Virus record (IMG/VR): IMGVR_UViG_3300025000_000080
Location: 53,188 to 73,187 of that record
DNA from: an uncultured virus (IMG/VR IMGVR_UViG_3300025000_000080)
Taxonomy: Duplodnaviria > Heunggongvirae > Uroviricota > Caudoviricetes
Direction: 5' to 3' (one strand)
Length of the DNA: 20,000 nucleotides
The translations under genes and the position numbers were made by a program. The notes under the pieces were generated by a model. The model made no database searches and was not told the origin of the DNA. It saw only the letters and a list, made by a program, of their open reading frames with translations. This document shows positions 2,098 through 12,697 of the stretch, one piece after another; position 1 is the stretch's first letter; each line of letters starts with the position of its first letter.

Positions 2098-2124
2098 TTT
2101 TTTTACGAAAGTGAATTTTACCTG

Positions 2125-2153
2125 TTGACATATGTCCAGCCGGGACATATAAT
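2125..2153 (+). promoter_or_regulatory. Perfect-consensus sigma70 promoter overlapping palindromic operator A
   Basis: TTGACA-17 nt-TATAAT, containing the inverted repeat ATATGTCC...GGACATAT. Confidence 0.88.
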
Positions 2154-2187
2154 CCTAATCAGATAATCGAGGTTGGGAGGACAACTA

Positions 2188-2436
2188 ATGACAGCAGCCC
2201 AGATCAGGACAAGGCGAAATTCAGAGAAGGCCGAGCAGATCGAGCGGCAGACTCAGCGGAACACCGCCAGCAGTCGCAAGATGATGGAGGCGCTTCAAGC
2301 GTTGGATATGGAGTCGAAGTCTGATGAGTGGATGCTGGCATTCGAGCAGTACGACATCCGGGAGTTGGCCCGGGGTACTGACGCAGTGGGGCAGCCAATA
2401 AAGCCGCCCTACAAGTATCGAAATGTGAAGTTGTAG
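2188..2436 (+). CDS. Hypothetical protein (82 aa)
   Basis: GGAGG RBS then ATG 2188 (MTAAQIRTRR...); first gene after the consensus promoter. Confidence 0.7.
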   Translation: MTAAQIRTRRNSEKAEQIERQTQRNTASSRKMMEALQALDMESKSDEWMLAFEQYDIRELARGTDAVGQPIKPPYKYRNVKL

Positions 2437-2548
2437 TTTTCAGCGGGCGCCCTCAGCCCGACCCCGGCATTGTGCCGGAGTCCAACCCTGGCCCCGATAC
2501 CGAGACGGTGGGGCCGAGAGCGGCGGGAAGCCGCAAGGGAGATGGGAG

Positions 2549-2764
2549 ATGGACGAGACACGGATCGAGTGGGCGGCGGTGGTGGACGCGAGTGGGGGTG
2601 TCGGTCGGTCCCTGCCCGTCCCGGTTGGCGGAACCGCAGGGGACGAACGCGATTCCGAACTCGGCAGGTACGCCACCGAGGCCGAGGCGGATGCTGCGCT
2701 CGAGGCTGCGTATCCTGGTTGGGAGTGGCGCCGAGGGCACGTGTACGCTCACCCCGACTACTGA
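2549..2764 (+). CDS. Hypothetical protein (71 aa)
   Basis: AAGGGAG RBS; fits between intergenic hairpins. Confidence 0.65.
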   Translation: MDETRIEWAAVVDASGGVGRSLPVPVGGTAGDERDSELGRYATEAEADAALEAAYPGWEWRRGHVYAHPDY

Positions 2765-2839
2765 CCCCGAGCCCGCCGGGAGCCTATCCCGGCTCGCTCC
2801 TCCGTGTCCCCGATGACCGGGGGCAGAGAGGAACGACCC

Positions 2840-2868
2840 TTGACTTCCCTCTCCCCGCCGGGTATATC
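2840..2868 (+). promoter_or_regulatory. Probable promoter overlapping operator B
   Basis: TTGACT-17 nt-TATATC (imperfect -10), overlapping TCCCC-GCC-GGGTAT. Confidence 0.55.
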
Positions 2869-2897
2869 TCCAGAGGGGGATAACCGGAGGATACACG

Positions 2898-3098
2898 ATG
2901 AAATGGTACTCAGTTCGTGCGGCGGCCCGAGAACTCGGGTTCGCCGACAAAAACTCAATCCGCCAATTGGCGGACCGGAAACGGGCGCCGCTGCAACTGG
3001 ACTATGCCCGGGACCCAGAGGGCCAGCCCCTGGAGCCCAGGCAGCCCCTGGTTTCGGAGGCGGAGATTGCCCGGATTCGGGCGGAGCGGGCGAAGTAA
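2898..3098 (+). CDS. Small HTH DNA-binding protein (excisionase/MerR-like)
   Basis: WYSVRAAARELGFADKNSIRQL...LVSEAEIARI; GGAGG RBS. Confidence 0.7.
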   Translation: MKWYSVRAAARELGFADKNSIRQLADRKRAPLQLDYARDPEGQPLEPRQPLVSEAEIARIRAERAK

Positions 3099-3102
3099 AA
3101 TA

Positions 3103-3155
3103 ATCCCCAATGGGTATCTTTTTCTGTTGACACGCATACCCGCTGGGGATATACT
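3103..3155 (+). promoter_or_regulatory. sigma70 promoter with two copies of operator B
   Basis: TTGACA(3127)-17 nt-TATACT(3150). ATCCCCAATGGGTAT at 3103-3117 and an inverted copy ATACCCGCTGGGGAT at 3136-3150. Confidence 0.85.
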
Positions 3156-3213
3156 TATATCATCAACGGTCGCAATGAGGCGGCCGGAGATTAAGACGAG
3201 AAGGAGAATAGAA

Positions 3214-3408
3214 ATGAAATCGTACCAACTCATCCAGAACACCGGCGTATACACCCCTGGCGTCCACGCCTTCGAGCCCGACGAGGAGATCCCCGCCGGC
3301 AACTGGTCGGGTGTGGTTGAGACCATCGACCAGCAGGAGGGCGAGTCCAATACCGACTTCGAGGCACGGGTGACCGCCCGCTGCCGGAAATTGGACGCTT
3401 CGCTATAG
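3214..3408 (+). CDS. Hypothetical acidic protein (64 aa)
   Basis: AAGGAG RBS, ATG 3214 (MKSYQLIQNTG...). Confidence 0.7.
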   Translation: MKSYQLIQNTGVYTPGVHAFEPDEEIPAGNWSGVVETIDQQEGESNTDFEARVTARCRKLDASL

Positions 3409-3502
3409 CCTCCGCCCCTTGATCGATCGCCCGACTGCCAGACGGACGATCGGATGAACGGACGACAACAGCCCGGGAGACCGGGCACAGCAAGGAGATG
3501 AA

Positions 3503-3835
3503 GTGAGTTACTTTTTCGATAGCCATGGGCAGTTATGGCAGGCTCTGTGGGGCCGGCATAAATATCAGGACCGTAACGGGCAGGAAGTTGAGCCGTTCGG
3601 TCCGACCGGGGCGGCCGTCCCGGTCCGTAGATTGTCGGCGGCGGGTATCGCTCCCCGTCCAGGTCAGACGGCCCACGCGGCGGCACACGGCCGCGTAACG
3701 GTATCGGAGGATGGGTGGTCCCTGCTGGATGCGGAGCGGGACTGGCCGCCCACCGACGAGGCGTGGGATACGCGCCACCGGCTGCACTCCAGGTGGGACG
3801 AGGCGGCTATCGTGCTACCGCCTCAGACCACCTGA
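3503..3835 (+). CDS. Hypothetical protein (110 aa)
   Basis: AAGGAG RBS, GTG start. Confidence 0.6.
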   Translation: MSYFFDSHGQLWQALWGRHKYQDRNGQEVEPFGPTGAAVPVRRLSAAGIAPRPGQTAHAAAHGRVTVSEDGWSLLDAERDWPPTDEAWDTRHRLHSRWDEAAIVLPPQTT

Positions 3836-3882
3836 TTTGCCCGTCCTCCCCGTCGTCTGGGGGGGGACGACGAATAGCACCG

Positions 3883-3905
3883 GGCCCGCTTCGGCGGGCC
3901 GTTTT
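3883..3905 (+). terminator. Putative (leaky) intrinsic terminator
   Basis: GGCCCGC-TTCG-GCGGGCC-GTTTT: cUUCGg tetraloop and a short U tract. Confidence 0.55.
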
Positions 3906-3972
3906 CTCCTGCCCCCGACGATCGGAGGCAGAGGAAAACGGACGAAACAGCCCGAGAGGGCAGGAGGACGAG

Positions 3973-4236
3973 ATGAAGCACCGATACACTCTCCACGCCA
4001 CTGACTACCAACTCAAGCCCAAGGTAGTCATAGCAAGCCCCTGCGGCTGGCATGTCCGGCCGGTCACGCCCGGCGAACGTGTATTCTCCCGGCAGGGCAC
4101 AGCGTCCGCCGTCGTGCCGGACGGCATCGACGGTGCCGTACTCGCCGAGCACATCCTGTGGCTCAAGGATGGCGAGGTCGTTTCCGGGGCGATATTGTGG
4201 AGGGCGGGCGGTGCATCCGCCGCTCGCGTGGAATAA
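3973..4236 (+). CDS. Hypothetical protein (87 aa)
   Basis: AGGAGG RBS, ATG 3973 (MKHRYTLH...). Confidence 0.7.
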   Translation: MKHRYTLHATDYQLKPKVVIASPCGWHVRPVTPGERVFSRQGTASAVVPDGIDGAVLAEHILWLKDGEVVSGAILWRAGGASAARVE

Positions 4237-4244
4237 ACGCGCAG

Positions 4245-4280
4245 TTCAGACAGTTGGTCGCGGCTAGCTGGCCGCTGTAA
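4245..4280 (+). pseudogene. 3' remnant of a paralogue of the 5842-6642 gene
   Basis: Reads FRQLVAASWPL* versus FRQLVAAIWPL* at the end of 5842-6642. TGGCCGCTGTAATCG is shared across the stop codon. Confidence 0.65.
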
Positions 4281-4388
4281 TCGATTTGGACGCCCACCGT
4301 CCCTTGATCGATCGCCCGACTGCCAGACGGACGATCGGATGAAGTGGCGAAACAACAGCCCGGCAAGACCGGGCAGAAGGAGAACGAG

Positions 4389-4586
4389 ATGGATCTGAAA
4401 AACGTAGTGGTTCCACCTGGATACGCCGTCCGCCCGGACGGTTGTATCTACCCGCGAAGCAGTGTAACGGACATGGCAGCCGCACTGGAGTTGCGGAGGA
4501 GGCGGGAGGCAGCGAGAGAATACTCCCGTGTTCACCCCGAAGAGGTGTGCGACGTAACCGCCTGGAAAGAGACTGATGAGGGTTGA
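4389..4586 (+). CDS. Hypothetical protein (65 aa)
   Basis: AAGGAG RBS, ATG 4389 (MDLKNVVVPPG...). Confidence 0.65.
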   Translation: MDLKNVVVPPGYAVRPDGCIYPRSSVTDMAAALELRRRREAAREYSRVHPEEVCDVTAWKETDEG

Positions 4587-4650
4587 CCCCGTCCTTTCGG
4601 AGACGTGAGACGCCCGGAATACCGGGCAAAGGAGACGAAGGAGAACGATC

Positions 4651-5397
4651 ATGCTGAATCTGTGTCATTTCGCCGTCGCCGTCGCGGGTGTCACGTACCC
4701 CGCGGCGGTCCCTGCTCCGCTCGTTTTCACTCCGGTCACCGCGCCGGGCAGTCATCCGGCGTTCCCGGTGCTGTTGGGGTTTAACGGCCCCGATGTGCGC
4801 TTATGGAGGTCGACGGACGGCTCTTCCGTCGGACTCGACGGCGGTGTTGAGAGTCACGATGGCGTAGTCATCGTGCCCCGATTTGCCCCTGCGGTCCGGT
4901 GGGTTCGCGCTGCCGGGCTCATCCCGTTCTGCGTCCCGCTTTCCGGCCAGCGGCAGCAGAACGGGTCGTTTGTCTGCGACGTCCTTGAGCCTGCTCCGGA
5001 GGGGCTCGAGGTGGAATTCCTCGACCCGGGCGAGTGGCCCGAGGACTCGGAAGACGAGTGTATGGACGACACTCCGACGTGGCAGGCGGCGGGGTTTATC
5101 AAGTGTCCCACCCTCCCGCTCATGGCCTACCACCTTCACCGGGCGATCCCCGGGTCGTTCGCGGTGGAGGTCGCCGACGGTCCGGATCTGGCGCAGGTCC
5201 CCGTCGAGTTACAGACACTCCGGTTGCCGGGCGGGACGGTGCAGGTGCCCCCCGGGTGCGAGGGGTACGACGCGATCCTGGTGCCGCAGGACGGGCGGAT
5301 CATCGATGCCGTCCATGTCACATATCCCGGGGTCGCGATTCTTGTCACCGACGTCACGAGGTCGGGACAGCGGACCGGGCTGTTTCAGGTCCGGTGA
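4651..5397 (+). CDS. Hypothetical protein (248 aa)
   Basis: AAGGAG RBS; long ORF bounded by hairpin repeats. Confidence 0.75.
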   Translation: MLNLCHFAVAVAGVTYPAAVPAPLVFTPVTAPGSHPAFPVLLGFNGPDVRLWRSTDGSSVGLDGGVESHDGVVIVPRFAPAVRWVRAAGLIPFCVPLSGQRQQNGSFVCDVLEPAPEGLEVEFLDPGEWPEDSEDECMDDTPTWQAAGFIKCPTLPLMAYHLHRAIPGSFAVEVADGPDLAQVPVELQTLRLPGGTVQVPPGCEGYDAILVPQDGRIIDAVHVTYPGVAILVTDVTRSGQRTGLFQVR

Positions 5398-5461
5398 TGC
5401 CGTTTTCTCCTGCCCCCGATGTCCGGAGGCAGAGGAGAACGAAGTTGCAAAGGAGTATGAG

Positions 5462-5761
5462 ATGCAGGTTCAGTGGAAAGCCGGGTGTGGTTATGGCCGC
5501 AATCCGATCCAGGGGCGGCGGATAGTCGTATCGTGGGACCCCTCCACCGAAAAGGTGGGGGAACTGGTGAAGGTGGTAAGCCCGGGACACGGATACATCC
5601 CTTTGGAGTATCGGCACGTAGATGTGACCGTTGAGCAGGCGGAGCACCTCGCCCGGTTCGGCACCCACGCCGACCGGATCGCGATGGAAAACCAGGAGGC
5701 GGAAGGGCGCCGCCGCTACCGTGAGGAATGGGCGCAGATTCTCGGTGTCACTGCGCTCTGA
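5462..5761 (+). CDS. Hypothetical protein (99 aa)
   Basis: AAGGAG RBS then ATG 5462 (MQVQWKAGCGYG...); 3' part of track ORF 4883..5761. Confidence 0.7.
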   Translation: MQVQWKAGCGYGRNPIQGRRIVVSWDPSTEKVGELVKVVSPGHGYIPLEYRHVDVTVEQAEHLARFGTHADRIAMENQEAEGRRRYREEWAQILGVTAL

Positions 5762-5841
5762 CTACGCCTGACACCGATGCCCGATGTGAGGCGGGCATCG
5801 TGGACAACAACGAAAACGAAAACGAAGAAGGGGAGAGTGGA

Positions 5842-6642
5842 ATGGAAGCAATCCTGAAGCAGCTCGGTATCGCCCTGACCACAACGGAAATCTGGCGTAA
5901 GTGGACGCGGCAGATTTCATTTTACGACAATAGCCACTGCCCCAACGGCAGACTGAATCAGACAATCCAGACTGATGGGCGCATTGCCTACAGCGCCCGG
6001 GAATACACTCACCAGCCGAATGACCACTTTACCGGCGGCGGGCACAAGACCGTCACCGTGACATCGTGGACGTGGCTTCTCGTCCTCGCGGACGGGAAGC
6101 ACCTGAACGGCTCGCAGTGGCGGCACATCTCAGAGGTGATTGTGACCGCCGAAGCGGACCCTGAAAAGGTTCTGACCGTCGTCGCCCTCGAGTTGTACGG
6201 CGGCCCTGCCGACGCCGGTTATCTCCATATCCAGACCGCCCAGCAGGCGCGGACGTGGATCGAGACACACTACCTTATCGGGACCCGGGCATCGGACGGT
6301 GCCATACTCTTCCGTCGCCGCACCGAGTGGGCGGAGTGGAAGACCCGCCCGCCCGTCGTTGCCCGGCTCGTCGAGCAGTTCGGATCGAGCGTTGTCGTCG
6401 CGCCGCCGCCGGTACCGATGGAGCATACCGATGAGACTCGGGCGATGTTTCCCGGGAGTCGCCAGACCGTACCCGAGGACCTGCTTGACGCGGGACCTAC
6501 GGTGATGACCCGGCCCAATGTCCGGGCGTATCTACGGAGCGTGCGACCTGATGCGGTGGCGGCATATGACGCGCATGACGGCGTGTCCCACTACGGGCAC
6601 GGGCCGTTCCGGCAACTGGTGGCGGCCATCTGGCCGCTGTAA
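5842..6642 (+). CDS. Hypothetical protein (266 aa)
   Basis: A-rich leader, GGGGAG RBS, ATG 5842 (MEAILKQLG...). Confidence 0.75.
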   Translation: MEAILKQLGIALTTTEIWRKWTRQISFYDNSHCPNGRLNQTIQTDGRIAYSAREYTHQPNDHFTGGGHKTVTVTSWTWLLVLADGKHLNGSQWRHISEVIVTAEADPEKVLTVVALELYGGPADAGYLHIQTAQQARTWIETHYLIGTRASDGAILFRRRTEWAEWKTRPPVVARLVEQFGSSVVVAPPPVPMEHTDETRAMFPGSRQTVPEDLLDAGPTVMTRPNVRAYLRSVRPDAVAAYDAHDGVSHYGHGPFRQLVAAIWPL

Positions 6643-6780
6643 TCGGTTGGGGGCCGCCTCTTGATCCCCCGGCAAAACTGGGCATGGGGATGCACCAATT
6701 TCCGGTAACCGCCCTTCGAATCGCCGCCCGGCACTGTCGGACGGCGGGACGAATGACGGAGAGTAACAACAGGAGGTTTT

Positions 6781-6993
6781 ATGGACGACGTGAAACATTT
6801 TCTCAGCGACTACGCACGCCATATCAGAGAGGCACAGCGAAACCTCCCTGAAACACTGTACAAGCAGCACCCTCTTTCCAACGACTGGTGCGACGACACC
6901 GGCAATGTGGTCTATCGGGGACCGACGCCGGACGGATACCGGCGAGTGAGCGACATCCCACTGAAATGGGAGATGGAGGATGCCAATGATTAA
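6781..6993 (+). CDS. Hypothetical protein (70 aa)
   Basis: AGGAGGT RBS. Confidence 0.7.
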   Translation: MDDVKHFLSDYARHIREAQRNLPETLYKQHPLSNDWCDDTGNVVYRGPTPDGYRRVSDIPLKWEMEDAND

Positions 6994-7213
6994 GAACGTG
7001 GCTGACTTGAGATCCCATGTGGACGCAGCAATCGCCACAGGCGACAAGCGTCACCTGGAAGCGCTGGTTTACCAATCCCGGACGATGGCGTGGTCACCCC
7101 ATGCAAAGTATGCGGTTCGGGAGATCCGGGAACGCGCCGAATCCGCTCTGGGATATCGCGTCCATGACGAGACGATGGCGACGGATGGACGGCGCATGAT
7201 TGCACGCTGGTAA
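6980..7213 (+). CDS. Hypothetical protein (about 77 aa)
   Basis: GGAGG RBS inside the previous gene; start at 6980 or 6986. Confidence 0.6.
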   Translation: MPMIKNVADLRSHVDAAIATGDKRHLEALVYQSRTMAWSPHAKYAVREIRERAESALGYRVHDETMATDGRRMIARW

Positions 7214-7254
7214 CACACTAGACACCCACCTGACGGTGGGTAAACGGAGGTATC

Positions 7255-7737
7255 ATGTTCAAGCCAGGTTCGCTCGAGGTCCCTTCCCCTACTGCCACCA
7301 GCCACACCTTCGAATGTGGTCATCATGTCGAGTTCACCAGCAATAGCGCCCGTCGTTCGTTCGAGGACTCGCCCAGATGTCCCCGGTGCTGGTCGTCACG
7401 TCCGACCGTACACCTGAAACTGACGACGACTCACCGGCATTACTCGTTTGAGCATCGCTGGTGGACCACTGTCGAGGCGGACGTGTTGCACACCTGTAAG
7501 CAGGGCTTCGCGACCGAGGATGCTACGGTAGAAGCCGTTAACGACTCCGTGCAGGCCATCCTGACCGATCTTCACCTTTTGGTCCCTGAGCCTGGTATAC
7601 GTGACTTCCTAGCCGATCCCACGCTACTACAGCGCTTCCAGGCCGCAATCGACCGCATCTTTTCGCTGGACGTCCATCTATGGGTGGGCGGAAAGTGGCT
7701 GGAGCGGGTAGGTATGCAAGCGGGGTGGCGGTCGTAG
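7255..7737 (+). CDS. Hypothetical protein with possible N-terminal Zn ribbon
   Basis: GGAGGT RBS; ECGH...CPRC. Confidence 0.65.
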   Translation: MFKPGSLEVPSPTATSHTFECGHHVEFTSNSARRSFEDSPRCPRCWSSRPTVHLKLTTTHRHYSFEHRWWTTVEADVLHTCKQGFATEDATVEAVNDSVQAILTDLHLLVPEPGIRDFLADPTLLQRFQAAIDRIFSLDVHLWVGGKWLERVGMQAGWRS

Positions 7738-11764: not shown

Positions 11765-12011
11765 GATGTCCTCCACTTTGAGTGACGCTCGCAATCGCTT
11801 CACGCTTGCCCCCGAAGTGATCGGGGGCGCACCGCTCGCAGTACCACTCGGCGCAGTAGTAGCACCGATAGATGGATAGAGTAGGAGGGACCCAGCCACA
11901 CCCACACCGGACAGGTTCACCGCGAAAGACAGCCCTGACTTGTCGGGCTACCCGTTCACGCTTCTGAAGTAGCTCAGCCTCAGTCTTTGGGGCATCGTGA
12001 CGGTTCACCAC
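11733..12011 (-). CDS. Small Cys/His-rich (Zn-finger-like) protein
   Basis: CGC...CYYC....CERC...H; GGAG RBS before GTG 12011. Confidence 0.6.
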   Translation of the reverse strand: MVNRHDAPKTEAELLQKRERVARQVRAVFRGEPVRCGCGWVPPTLSIYRCYYCAEWYCERCAPDHFGGKREAIASVTQSGGHHETRNEACGD

Positions 12012-12639
12012 GTTTCCACTCCTGCCACATGTCTTCGACATCGCCCCTGGTCACGATGTCGGCGTAATCGAAATTACACACCAGTGCGCGCTCTTCATCC
12101 CATGAGATTACCCACGGATGTGGAATGACTGGTCCTCCGAACTTGGGCCAGCGCACCCTGCGACCACCACTGGGAAGGCGTGTAGATGGATGGTTCTCCT
12201 TGATGAGCGTCAACAGGTCCTCGAGCGACTGTGCAGCGTTCACGCCTTCCCGTTGATCGAACCAGTCTTTAACGATGGGCGCCATCTCCTGAATCTCATG
12301 GATAGCCTGTTGGATGGTCAAACCTGTGAGCGTCCAGCATGCCTGTGTACGGTCGAAGTCGTCACGCTCGGCATAAATCTCAAAATAGGTAGGGGTCCTC
12401 TCGTTACCCGGCCCTCGAGGCTGTGATAGTCGAGCCGTCCAGCCGTACTCTAATTGAGTGCAGTACTGGGCGCGCGGTCTCCAGTCCTTCATAATGACAA
12501 GGGTGACGGGGTCTTTGATGGAGCAATGTTCGAGGTCAAGGACGGCTATGTCGCCAGGGTTGTCTATCGCGACATAGCCGGGTGGGTAATTGGGGGTAGT
12601 CAGGACATGCATACTCGTCACAGCCTCCACAGTAGCCAT
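11980..12639 (-). CDS. Hypothetical protein (219 aa), probably leaderless
   Basis: ATG 5 nt downstream of a TATACT -10 box. Confidence 0.7.
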   Translation of the reverse strand: MATVEAVTSMHVLTTPNYPPGYVAIDNPGDIAVLDLEHCSIKDPVTLVIMKDWRPRAQYCTQLEYGWTARLSQPRGPGNERTPTYFEIYAERDDFDRTQACWTLTGLTIQQAIHEIQEMAPIVKDWFDQREGVNAAQSLEDLLTLIKENHPSTRLPSGGRRVRWPKFGGPVIPHPWVISWDEERALVCNFDYADIVTRGDVEDMWQEWKRGEPSRCPKD

Positions 12640-12644
12640 GACTC

Positions 12645-12673
12645 AGTATATAGGTGATCGACGTACTAATCAA
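12645..12673 (-). promoter_or_regulatory. sigma70-type promoter
   Basis: cctgTTGATT-17 nt-TATACT. Confidence 0.75.
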
Positions 12674-12697
12674 CAGGTATTTTAATGTATCGCTGGA

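Follow-up and report, generated by a model that had tools for sequence, protein, structure and literature searches.

Phage ORFan arrays hold the most variable genes, and the rules for their expression and turnover are poorly known outside T4 and T7. How such an array is punctuated is the question raised by the locus described here. It lies in a window of 20,000 nucleotides (nt), the final 20 kb (positions 53,188 to 73,187) of the 73,187-bp IMG/VR record IMGVR_UViG_3300025000_000080, from an uncultured virus of the Caudoviricetes. Thirteen co-directional ORFan genes occupy 2188-7737 on the plus strand of this window, and a small hairpin, here called class 1, stands at eight of the ten gene boundaries between 2436 and 6781. 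The array is punctuated by this hairpin, whose stem covaries and whose mismatched tip stays fixed; it matches neither a promoter or terminator nor any known type of processing site. With a rough probability of 0.4, we read it as a sense-RNA leader element whose conserved tip would be read by one factor and whose module may also act as a recombination joint for gene swapping.

Eight hairpins at the gene boundaries of the array

The window was scanned with a strict pattern: an outer stem of at least three Watson-Crick pairs, then C, CCG, a loop, CGG, A or G, and the other arm of the outer stem. Seven copies were found in this way, together with one degenerate copy, and all eight are on the plus (coding) strand between 2460 and 6746 and outside coding sequence. 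The first (2460-2482, GAC-C-CCG(G)-loop-(C)CGG-A-GTC, with a C.A mismatch) is 23 nt past the stop codon at 2436 and 66 nt ahead of the ATG at 2549, and folds at -14.0 kcal/mol (z -4.29). The degenerate copy, a member of the CTGCC family (D1), spans 2793-2835 with its core at 2804-2826 (z -3.77). It was recovered by the repeat finder and a relaxed scan, is 65% identical to the D1 reference copy, and has one G.U pair and one mismatch in its outer stem. Two further D1 copies, 91% identical over 43 nt, are D1a (3898-3942; core CTGCC-C-CCG-ACGAT-CGG-A-GGCAG at 3909-3931; -28.0 kcal/mol, z -5.58) and D1b (5399-5443; core 5410-5432; -24.3 kcal/mol, z -5.05), the extended stem of the latter beginning 3 nt past the stop codon at 5397. 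The CGATCG family (D2) has a copy at 3424-3452 (D2a, CGATCG-C-CCG-ACTGCCAGA-CGG-A-CGATCG, with an extended imperfect stem at 3415-3462) and an identical one at 4309-4337 (D2b), found by both the strict scan and the repeat finder. The last two are CGATG-C-CCG-ATGTGAGG-CGG-G-CATCG at 5775-5800 (z -4.05) and CGCCG-C-CCG-GCACTGT-CGG-A-CGGCG at 6722-6746 (z -2.54).

The eight copies therefore represent five independent outer-stem types, given the identity of 3424 with 4309 and the near identity of 3909 with 5410. The five stems named in the preliminary description of this locus (GAC/GTC, CGATCG/CGATCG, CTGCC/GGCAG, CGATG/CATCG and CGCCG/CGGCG) are all present at the sites, and its loop lengths of 5-9 nt were confirmed. 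Its count of nine copies has to be lowered to eight: a site at 6663-6690, identified by sequence reading, is a decayed relative that keeps the D2 flanks CTTGATC ... GGATG and has no CCG/CGG-A core. With this correction the tip pair is C.A in six copies rather than seven, and the two C-G copies (5775 and 2804) stand. That a hairpin stands at almost every gene boundary also holds, the exceptions being 3099-3213, where there is a promoter, and 4587-4650, where there is only a second hairpin class.

Chance occurrence was assessed with 1000 first-order Markov shuffles of window 2100-7300 and with 200 shuffles of the whole 137.6-kb genome to which the record belongs. In the array the outer stem reaches 5 bp or more in six copies, compared to a mean of 0.014 and a maximum of one such copy in the array shuffles; the whole-genome shuffles gave a mean of 0.095 copies per strand. 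No further copy with such a stem was found on the array strand of the genome, and the sole extra strict match in the full genome has a 3-bp stem, at 11808. A relaxed descriptor returned about a dozen background matches per strand over the genome, none convincing. When hairpins of this architecture were collected from the array strand regardless of sequence (n=55), the combination of C.A with CCG/CGG occurred in five, which are exactly array copies and all intergenic; seven others had C.A with different triplets, and six of these seven lie in coding sequence. The concern voiced in the preliminary description, that the motif might be equally frequent within genes or in shuffled sequence, is clearly answered by the count of six against 0.014 and by the absence of all eight copies from coding sequence. 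Both hairpin classes are restricted to the array, and other gaps of the genome carry different features. The hairpin family is real and local, and is known here from one genome.

The suggestion that this is not a described family agrees with Rfam, which gave no match at E values up to 1 over the whole window. Among the papers returned by literature searches, none describes a hairpin with this tip, judged by titles and the beginnings of abstracts and without a search for the motif letters themselves. Mobile palindromes of the REP/RAYT type were considered and rejected: the copies are limited to 4.3 kb of 137.6 kb and their stems differ. No Y1 transposase family was found in Pfam scans of the phage, whose only transposon-related gene is TnpB-like.

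Covarying stems, a fixed tip and the active strand

MAFFT did not place the copies in register, and stem pairs were tabulated by script. Across the five types, each outer-stem position holds two to four different Watson-Crick pair types, and 23 of the 25 cells are paired. Loops GCATTGTGC (2460) and GCACTGT (6722) show a common tip and loop riding on different stems, GAC and CGCCG; similarly, CCCGATGT is common to the copies at 5410 and 5775, on CTGCC and CGATG stems respectively. The CGATCG/CGATCG and CGATG/CATCG stems differ by the loss of one base per arm. Such common tips and loops on unrelated stems suggest that the copies are homologous and that changes in the stems were compensated. In the CTGCC family the pairing continues outward to give a hairpin of 43 nt and 19 bp that contains a second C.A and a G.U (D1a has two C.A and one G.U over its 19 bp), and the CGATCG family extends imperfectly. 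On the plus strand all copies fold better than shuffled sequence, with z from -2.45 to -5.58. When the three CTGCC copies were used to build a covariance model, it depended too much on their sequence, and the other types scored 7.9-12.3 bits, within noise.

We propose that the hairpins are cis-acting elements on the sense transcript of a rightward ORFan operon, which would start at the consensus promoter just downstream of an integrase gene and an excisionase-like gene. Each hairpin would be part of a reusable intercistronic or leader module. The outer stem, paired but free to change, would give stability, and the invariant tip (C opposite A, three C-G/G-C pairs and a loop starting with A-Y-G or GCA) would be the recognition surface for a single trans-acting RNA-binding factor with the same action on every cistron. 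A nuclease or a regulator, of host or phage, might fill this role. The likely outcome would be a polycistronic mRNA that is segmented or insulated, with defined and protected ends and with independent translation of each ORFan. Because the module has been copied between unrelated genes, it would also provide homologous sequence at which ORFan cassettes could be exchanged. If one factor does read the tip, the phage would have a compact means to regulate or process its whole accessory gene set at once, and the tip would offer a handle for finding such arrays in uncultured phages.

Several points weigh against this proposal. The preliminary description had argued for a folded single strand rather than a double-stranded DNA operator; the variation of loop length between 5 and 9 nt, the varied stem pairs and the fixed tip bear this out, but the covariation is partly circular, since paired flanks were a search criterion and the five types come from one genome. 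The fixed tip could be an inheritance from one ancestral module rather than a product of selection. No candidate RNA-binding protein or nuclease was found in family scans of the phage proteins, and no RNA run is listed among the sequencing runs that contain the array. The CTGCC family presents a further difficulty. Its 3' arm reads CGGAGG, so that the C.A is formed by the A of GGAGG facing a run of five C, a feature confined to this type, the other four having no GGAGG. The same arrangement is present in two unrelated phage loci (L012 and L015), where GGAGG is the Shine-Dalgarno sequence of the next gene, which begins directly past the stem. Hairpins of this sort thus turn up in unrelated phages for a reason that has nothing to do with the class-1 family, and the CTGCC copies need no dedicated reader of their mismatch.

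The last of these points concerns the strand. The complementary strand folds equally well or better (-22.8 compared to -14.0 kcal/mol at 2460, and -22.1 compared to -16.2 kcal/mol at 3415-3462), because the C.A becomes U.G there, and it is only on that strand that the choice of A or G opposite C looks neutral. These observations raise the alternative that activity resides in the complementary strand, in the form of antisense RNA or single-stranded DNA, with the hairpins blocking or terminating transcription from a convergent minus-strand operon or acting in replication. On that strand the mismatch is a legitimate U.G or T.G pair, A or G opposite C turns into neutral U or C opposite G, and the fold is as stable or more so in six of nine segments (five of seven with shuffle controls). 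The minus-strand operon abuts the array at 7737/7740, which leaves no room for a terminator, and T-rich tracts follow the class-2 hairpins on the minus strand, two of them listed as terminator-like. These tracts, however, are simply the complement of A-rich leaders. On the minus strand the class-1 hairpins have no T tract after them, and the 14 terminator-like sites of the window are no excess over the 13.6 of shuffles. Other wobbles and mismatches favour the plus strand, for example the T.G in 2804-2826 and that in the extension of the CGATCG (D2) stem, and we know of no process that would expose the minus strand here. We consider activity of the complementary strand very unlikely. If transcription treats the operon as one unit, its sense transcript necessarily includes the gaps, and sense RNA is therefore favoured as the active form.

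Intrinsic termination by the class-1 hairpins was rejected: no T tract is found 3' of any of the eight copies, and the terminator scan lists only one site in the array gaps, at 3883-3900. The same absence means that terminator or attenuator action is not indicated. Cleavage is a second possibility. The preliminary description had offered, as one option, sites for RNase III like those of T7, at which the polycistron would be cut into single-gene units that keep a protective 3' hairpin. A T7-type RNase III site has about two helical turns of duplex and a central internal loop. The intergenic position in an early-type operon, the conserved internal 1x1 mismatch and the 19-bp imperfect duplex of the CTGCC family all fit this option. 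It fares poorly beyond that family, the only one near 19 bp: in three of the five types the stem has no more than 9-12 bp, and only three base pairs separate the mismatch from the loop, where a mid-helix position would be expected. We consider processing by RNase III at these sites very unlikely.

Leader modules, gene replacement and exchange

The class-1 hairpin is the first component of a longer module. After the hairpin come an A/C-rich, unstructured linker, often with GGACGA and AACA, then in four gaps a GC hairpin of class 2, and finally a strong Shine-Dalgarno sequence and the start codon. The distance from the class-1 hairpin to the next start codon is 29-75 nt, and that from the previous stop codon is more scattered, at 12-79 nt. 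The class-2 hairpins, all on the plus strand, are GCCCGG-GAGA-CCGGGC at 3471-3486, just 5' of the Shine-Dalgarno sequence AAGGAGA; GCCC-GAGA-GGGC at 3951-3962, ahead of AGGAGG; GCCCGG-CAAGA-CCGGGC at 4358-4374; and GCCCGG-AATA-CCGGGC at 4612-4627, the last two also ahead of a Shine-Dalgarno sequence and the last in a gap that has no class-1 hairpin.

Modules have been duplicated within the array. Stretches 3412-3498 and 4297-4383 share 87.8% identity, and their similarity continues through to the ribosome-binding site and stops no more than 5 nt short of the start codon; the near-identical modules (88-91%) flank unrelated proteins. Directly after the stop codon of gene 3973-4236, a 53-nt stretch (4237-4289) is 79% identical to 6599-6651, the 3' end of gene 5842-6642, and the homology runs into the decayed site at 6663-6690. 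Stretch 4237-4289 is what remains of a gene that was replaced earlier.

These duplications bring in the main rival to a factor-read leader. Composite modules conserved before ORFans, the PeSLs (promoter-early stem-loops), mediate gene shuffling in T4-type phages (Arbiol et al. 2010, PMC2839356; Comeau et al. 2014, PMC4122927), and the hairpins could be recombination modules of that kind with no specific reader: generic stabilisers or attenuators in duplicated cassettes, with a tip common by descent and a main role as homologous joints for ORFan shuffling. The two pairs of modules that are 88-91% identical between unrelated genes and the remnant at 4237-4289 fit such a history. So does a block, 2837-3188, held in common with an abundant phage, whose edges are 2 nt past the hairpins at 2793-2835 and 3167-3186. 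As in PeSLs, a stem-loop overlaps the listed promoter in the gaps at 2125 and 3127; a third promoter-like sequence, near 2840, is weaker, was seen by eye and is absent from the promoter scan list. Descent alone, however, does not explain why the outer stems have fully diverged around an unchanged 8-nt tip; some constraint on the tip would be needed. The C.A could be mended by one A-to-G substitution, yet it is kept in four of the five types. The promoter that defines a PeSL is in none of the hairpin modules, and with no T tract in any copy a terminator or attenuator role is not indicated. We therefore hold a module with no reader to be doubtful, although it deserves more weight than any other alternative to the reading of the tip by one factor.

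The common block bears on a further possibility. It belongs to a second element that is about tenfold more abundant in the same metagenome and shares only window 2837-3188 with this phage, at about 88% identity. The block comprises gene 2898-3098, which encodes a helix-turn-helix-like protein, and promoter-bearing sequence on both sides; it starts 2 nt past hairpin 2793-2835 and ends 2 nt past hairpin 3167-3186, which is not of the class-1 family. Homologues of individual array proteins were found elsewhere as well. The 88% twin of the 66-aa gene 2898-3098 protein is in 18 contigs of up to 60 kb in the protein database. For the 248-aa ORFan, eight homologous proteins (41-62% identity) are encoded by other contigs, which reach 177 kb; relatives therefore exist.

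The preliminary description had offered, as another option, single-stranded DNA recombination sites of an integron-like cassette array. On such a view each ORFan would move together with its hairpin as a cassette, with the neighbouring tyrosine recombinase acting on the folded site. The recombinase and a strong outward promoter are at the head of the array, the block common with the other phage ends 2 nt past hairpins on both sides, and the short conserved core, covarying stem and fixed unpaired base recall the logic of attC sites. These sites carry boxes RYYYAAC ... GTTRRRY (inverse core and core) at the base of the hairpin. No such pair was found in the flanks of the eight copies, and the GTTTTC ... 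GAAAAC of the CTGCC family is in the opposite order; nor do boxes of the AAC...GTT type flank the base of the stem. Recombination of attC sites takes place at the base, whereas conservation here is at the tip, and one of the two breakpoint hairpins is outside the class-1 family. The integrase is not of the integron type: it scores 61.7 bits with TIGR02249 (cutoff 265) and 40.6 bits with NF011946 (cutoff 435), and only its last ~65 residues (about 290-356) match. An integron-like system is thus a most improbable account of the array.

A looser form of exchange is also unlikely, though less so. In this form the hairpins would be crossover or recognition points at which co-occurring phages trade single ORFans with their leaders into a promoter-driven array beside the integrase. 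If true, it would be a phage counterpart of gene-cassette capture with a folded site unrelated to attC, and the same folded site, present in the mRNA, would give captured genes a standard expression context. Hairpins that mark exchange points would bear on how ORFans move between phages.

The array is present in four DNA runs from one study. Neither a variant of this phage nor a joint across the array appears among their contigs, in which rare forms cannot show. IMG/VR scans with the 266-aa ORFan, the 248-aa ORFan, the integrase and the putative terminase each returned the phage's own contig (4/4); the one other locus found has an integrase of 30% identity. Relatives of the integrase are also present in bacterial genomes (at 43% and 39% identity in metagenome-assembled genomes of Alphaproteobacteria; others at 29-35%), and the seven loci scanned there had no motif. 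Against GenBank phages, blastn of 2300-7000 and tblastn of the 266-aa and 248-aa ORFans gave nothing. In IMG/VR and JGI metagenomes, a 29-nt stretch common with the abundant element was found in this contig only.

Pattern scans of IMG/VR returned 12 foreign loci for the CTGCC hairpin and two for the CGATCG hairpin. The stem continues beyond the pattern in eight of the 14 (6-14 bp), including seven of the 12 CTGCC loci, where it runs 1 to 6 bp past the specified five. Most are real hairpins, but their contexts are unrelated, and they were not accepted as family members; in L012 and L015 the hairpin sequesters a Shine-Dalgarno sequence, GGAGG, by pairing it with a run of C. The three hairpins within 1.3 kb of contig G002 were likewise not counted, as they look like ordinary gene-end hairpins, one of them with a T tract. 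A pattern combining a class-2 hairpin with a Shine-Dalgarno sequence gave 12 unrelated loci, none with the class-1 motif.

Operon, genome context and comparison with known systems

The 13 genes of the array are at 2188-2436, 2549-2764, 2898-3098, 3214-3408, 3503-3835, 3973-4236, 4389-4586, 4651-5397, 5462-5761, 5842-6642, 6781-6993, 6980-7213 and 7255-7737, all on the plus strand. Each has a positive score in the codon model and a canonical Shine-Dalgarno sequence (13/13 for both). Ten antisense open reading frames (ORFs) were scored in the same way; none has a Shine-Dalgarno sequence, and the four long ones that span hairpin-bearing gaps are negative. No Pfam, PHROGs or NCBIfam match was found for the 13 genes, and there are no paralogues within the array, as no pair among 14 array proteins was significant in BLASTP. 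The G+C content of the array is 62%, compared to 57.5% for the record.

The array is headed by a consensus sigma-70-type promoter (TTGACA-17-TATAAT, 2125-2153, plus strand, 12/12 matches). A second strong promoter-like site on the same strand (TTGACA-17-TATACT, 3127-3155, 11/12 matches) is overlapped by an inverted repeat. Palindromes lie over both: ATATGTCC-AGCCG-GGACATAT spans the spacer and -10 element of the first, and ATCCCCA...TGGGGAT surrounds the -35 element of the second (region 3099-3160). They look like operators. The promoter scan lists no plus-strand site between 3156 and 7944. The sole canonical intrinsic terminator in the array gaps is GGCCCGC-TTCG-GCGGGCC followed by GTTTTCTCC, at 3883-3900 on the plus strand, and its T tract doubles as the 5' arm of hairpin 3898-3942.

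Transcription has to pass this strong terminator before it meets nine genes that have no promoter of their own, and the preliminary description had named a site for an RNA-binding regulator or antiterminator among its options. This is possible, on weak leads. The hairpins, of class 1 or of the GNRA-type class 2, would be reiterated nut-like sites bound by a small phage antiterminator, which would carry polymerase through terminator 3883 along nine promoterless genes. The candidate is the product of gene 2188-2436, the first after the consensus promoter, an 82-aa protein with an arginine-rich N terminus (6 of the 31 N-terminal residues are Arg). Compared with lambda N, it aligns best with the arginine-rich stretch of N (TRRNSEKAEQ compared to TRRRERRAEK), but the match is not significant (BLASTP, E 0.9 for a single comparison, 5/10 identities over 10 residues). 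The protein has no Pfam or PDB sequence match even at E 10, and a protein atlas look-up gave no usable match. At the level of the RNA, class-2 hairpins place GAGA loops on GCCC stems, and lambda nutL boxB is GCCCTGAAGAAGGGC. The boxB arrangement of a 5-bp stem and a fixed GNRA-like pentaloop was not found, however: class-1 loops vary in sequence and in length (5-9 nt), and the class-2 loops are GAGA, GAGA, CAAGA and AATA. There is no boxA-like sequence, and known nut sites occur once per operon rather than at every gene. We regard reiterated nut-like sites as unlikely, if somewhat less so than the trading of cassettes at the hairpins.

In the window, the array is preceded by the integrase gene (685-1785), the excisionase-like helix-turn-helix gene (1849-2097) and the promoter at 2125-2153. 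It is followed from 7740 by a convergent minus-strand block encoding DpdA, pairs of ParB-like and PAPS-reductase-like proteins, acetyltransferases and a helicase. The last array gene and the first gene of this block are 2 nt apart (7737/7740) with no terminator between them, and each transcript must therefore run antisense into the other operon.

The 73,187-bp record is a fragment: it aligns, with 99.9% identity, to two separate parts of an IMG/VR contig of 137,577 bp (G001). The ends of this contig overlap by ~126 bp, which suggests a circular or permuted genome; the true phage genome is therefore ~137 kb. Encoded on it are a portal, a capsid protein, a tail tube protein of the T4 gp19 type and baseplate proteins; DnaB, DnaG and a beta clamp; and Mom, DpdA, a CI-like helix-turn-helix protein and the tyrosine integrase. 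By this predicted gene content the phage is a large temperate myovirus. A 586-aa ORF that adjoins the portal gene and has no Pfam match was taken as the putative large terminase; tblastn of this protein against GenBank phages gave nothing at E 1e-10, and no close cultured relative was found in searches of GenBank phages. The sequencing runs that contain the phage are all groundwater metagenomes of one study.

Three other features of the genome were recorded. The phage encodes tRNA-Glu(UUC) and tRNA-Lys(UUU) (L009:3748-3820 and 4018-4089). A recurrent promoter-like motif, ATTAAAATA followed by 3-5 nt and TTGAC, occurs in many gaps outside the hairpin array, for example at window 12613-12697, and is probably a distinct promoter class of the phage. 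Two CRISPR-like arrays (L004:12050-13250, outside the window) lie directly upstream of a gene for a 561-aa TnpB/Cas12f-like protein. They have five and four copies of two different 36-38-nt repeats with a period of 70-73 nt, and each is preceded by a similar 47-nt leader. One 37-nt spacer is identical to window 4537-4573, within ORFan gene 4389-4586; the phage therefore carries a guide matching its own gene. The 5' flank of this match is not T-rich.

Known systems resemble the array in different respects. Integron attC sites follow each gene of an array beside a tyrosine recombinase and a strong promoter, conserve structure above sequence and keep an unpaired base fixed; here the integrase is generic, R'/R'' boxes are absent, the conserved part is at the tip, and no cassette junctions were seen. 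The early RNase III sites of T7 (R0.3, R0.5, R1, R1.1 and R1.3) are related hairpins with an internal mismatch between successive genes of the early operon, whereas most stems here are too short (9-12 bp) and have the mismatch beside the loop. With lambda nut the array has in common a small GC hairpin in an early-gene leader, upstream of a terminator to be read through, and a small arginine-rich protein encoded first in the operon; it differs in that the element is repeated at eight boundaries, has no boxA and is not fixed in loop length or sequence.

In logic, the closest known system is the PeSLs, which are defined by a promoter and a terminator-like stem-loop (PMC2839356). The two are alike in being short conserved intergenic modules in which a stem-loop is followed by a Shine-Dalgarno sequence and the start codon of an ORFan. 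Both cluster in a plastic region, recur between genes that are unrelated, and are tied to gene replacement. They differ in that none of the eight modules here includes a promoter, those at 2125 and 3127 being in gaps with no class-1 hairpin, and in that the hairpins are not terminators. Here the stems covary around a fixed 8-nt tip with its C.A, and the phage that carries them is temperate and, by the tblastn search with the putative terminase, not T4-like.

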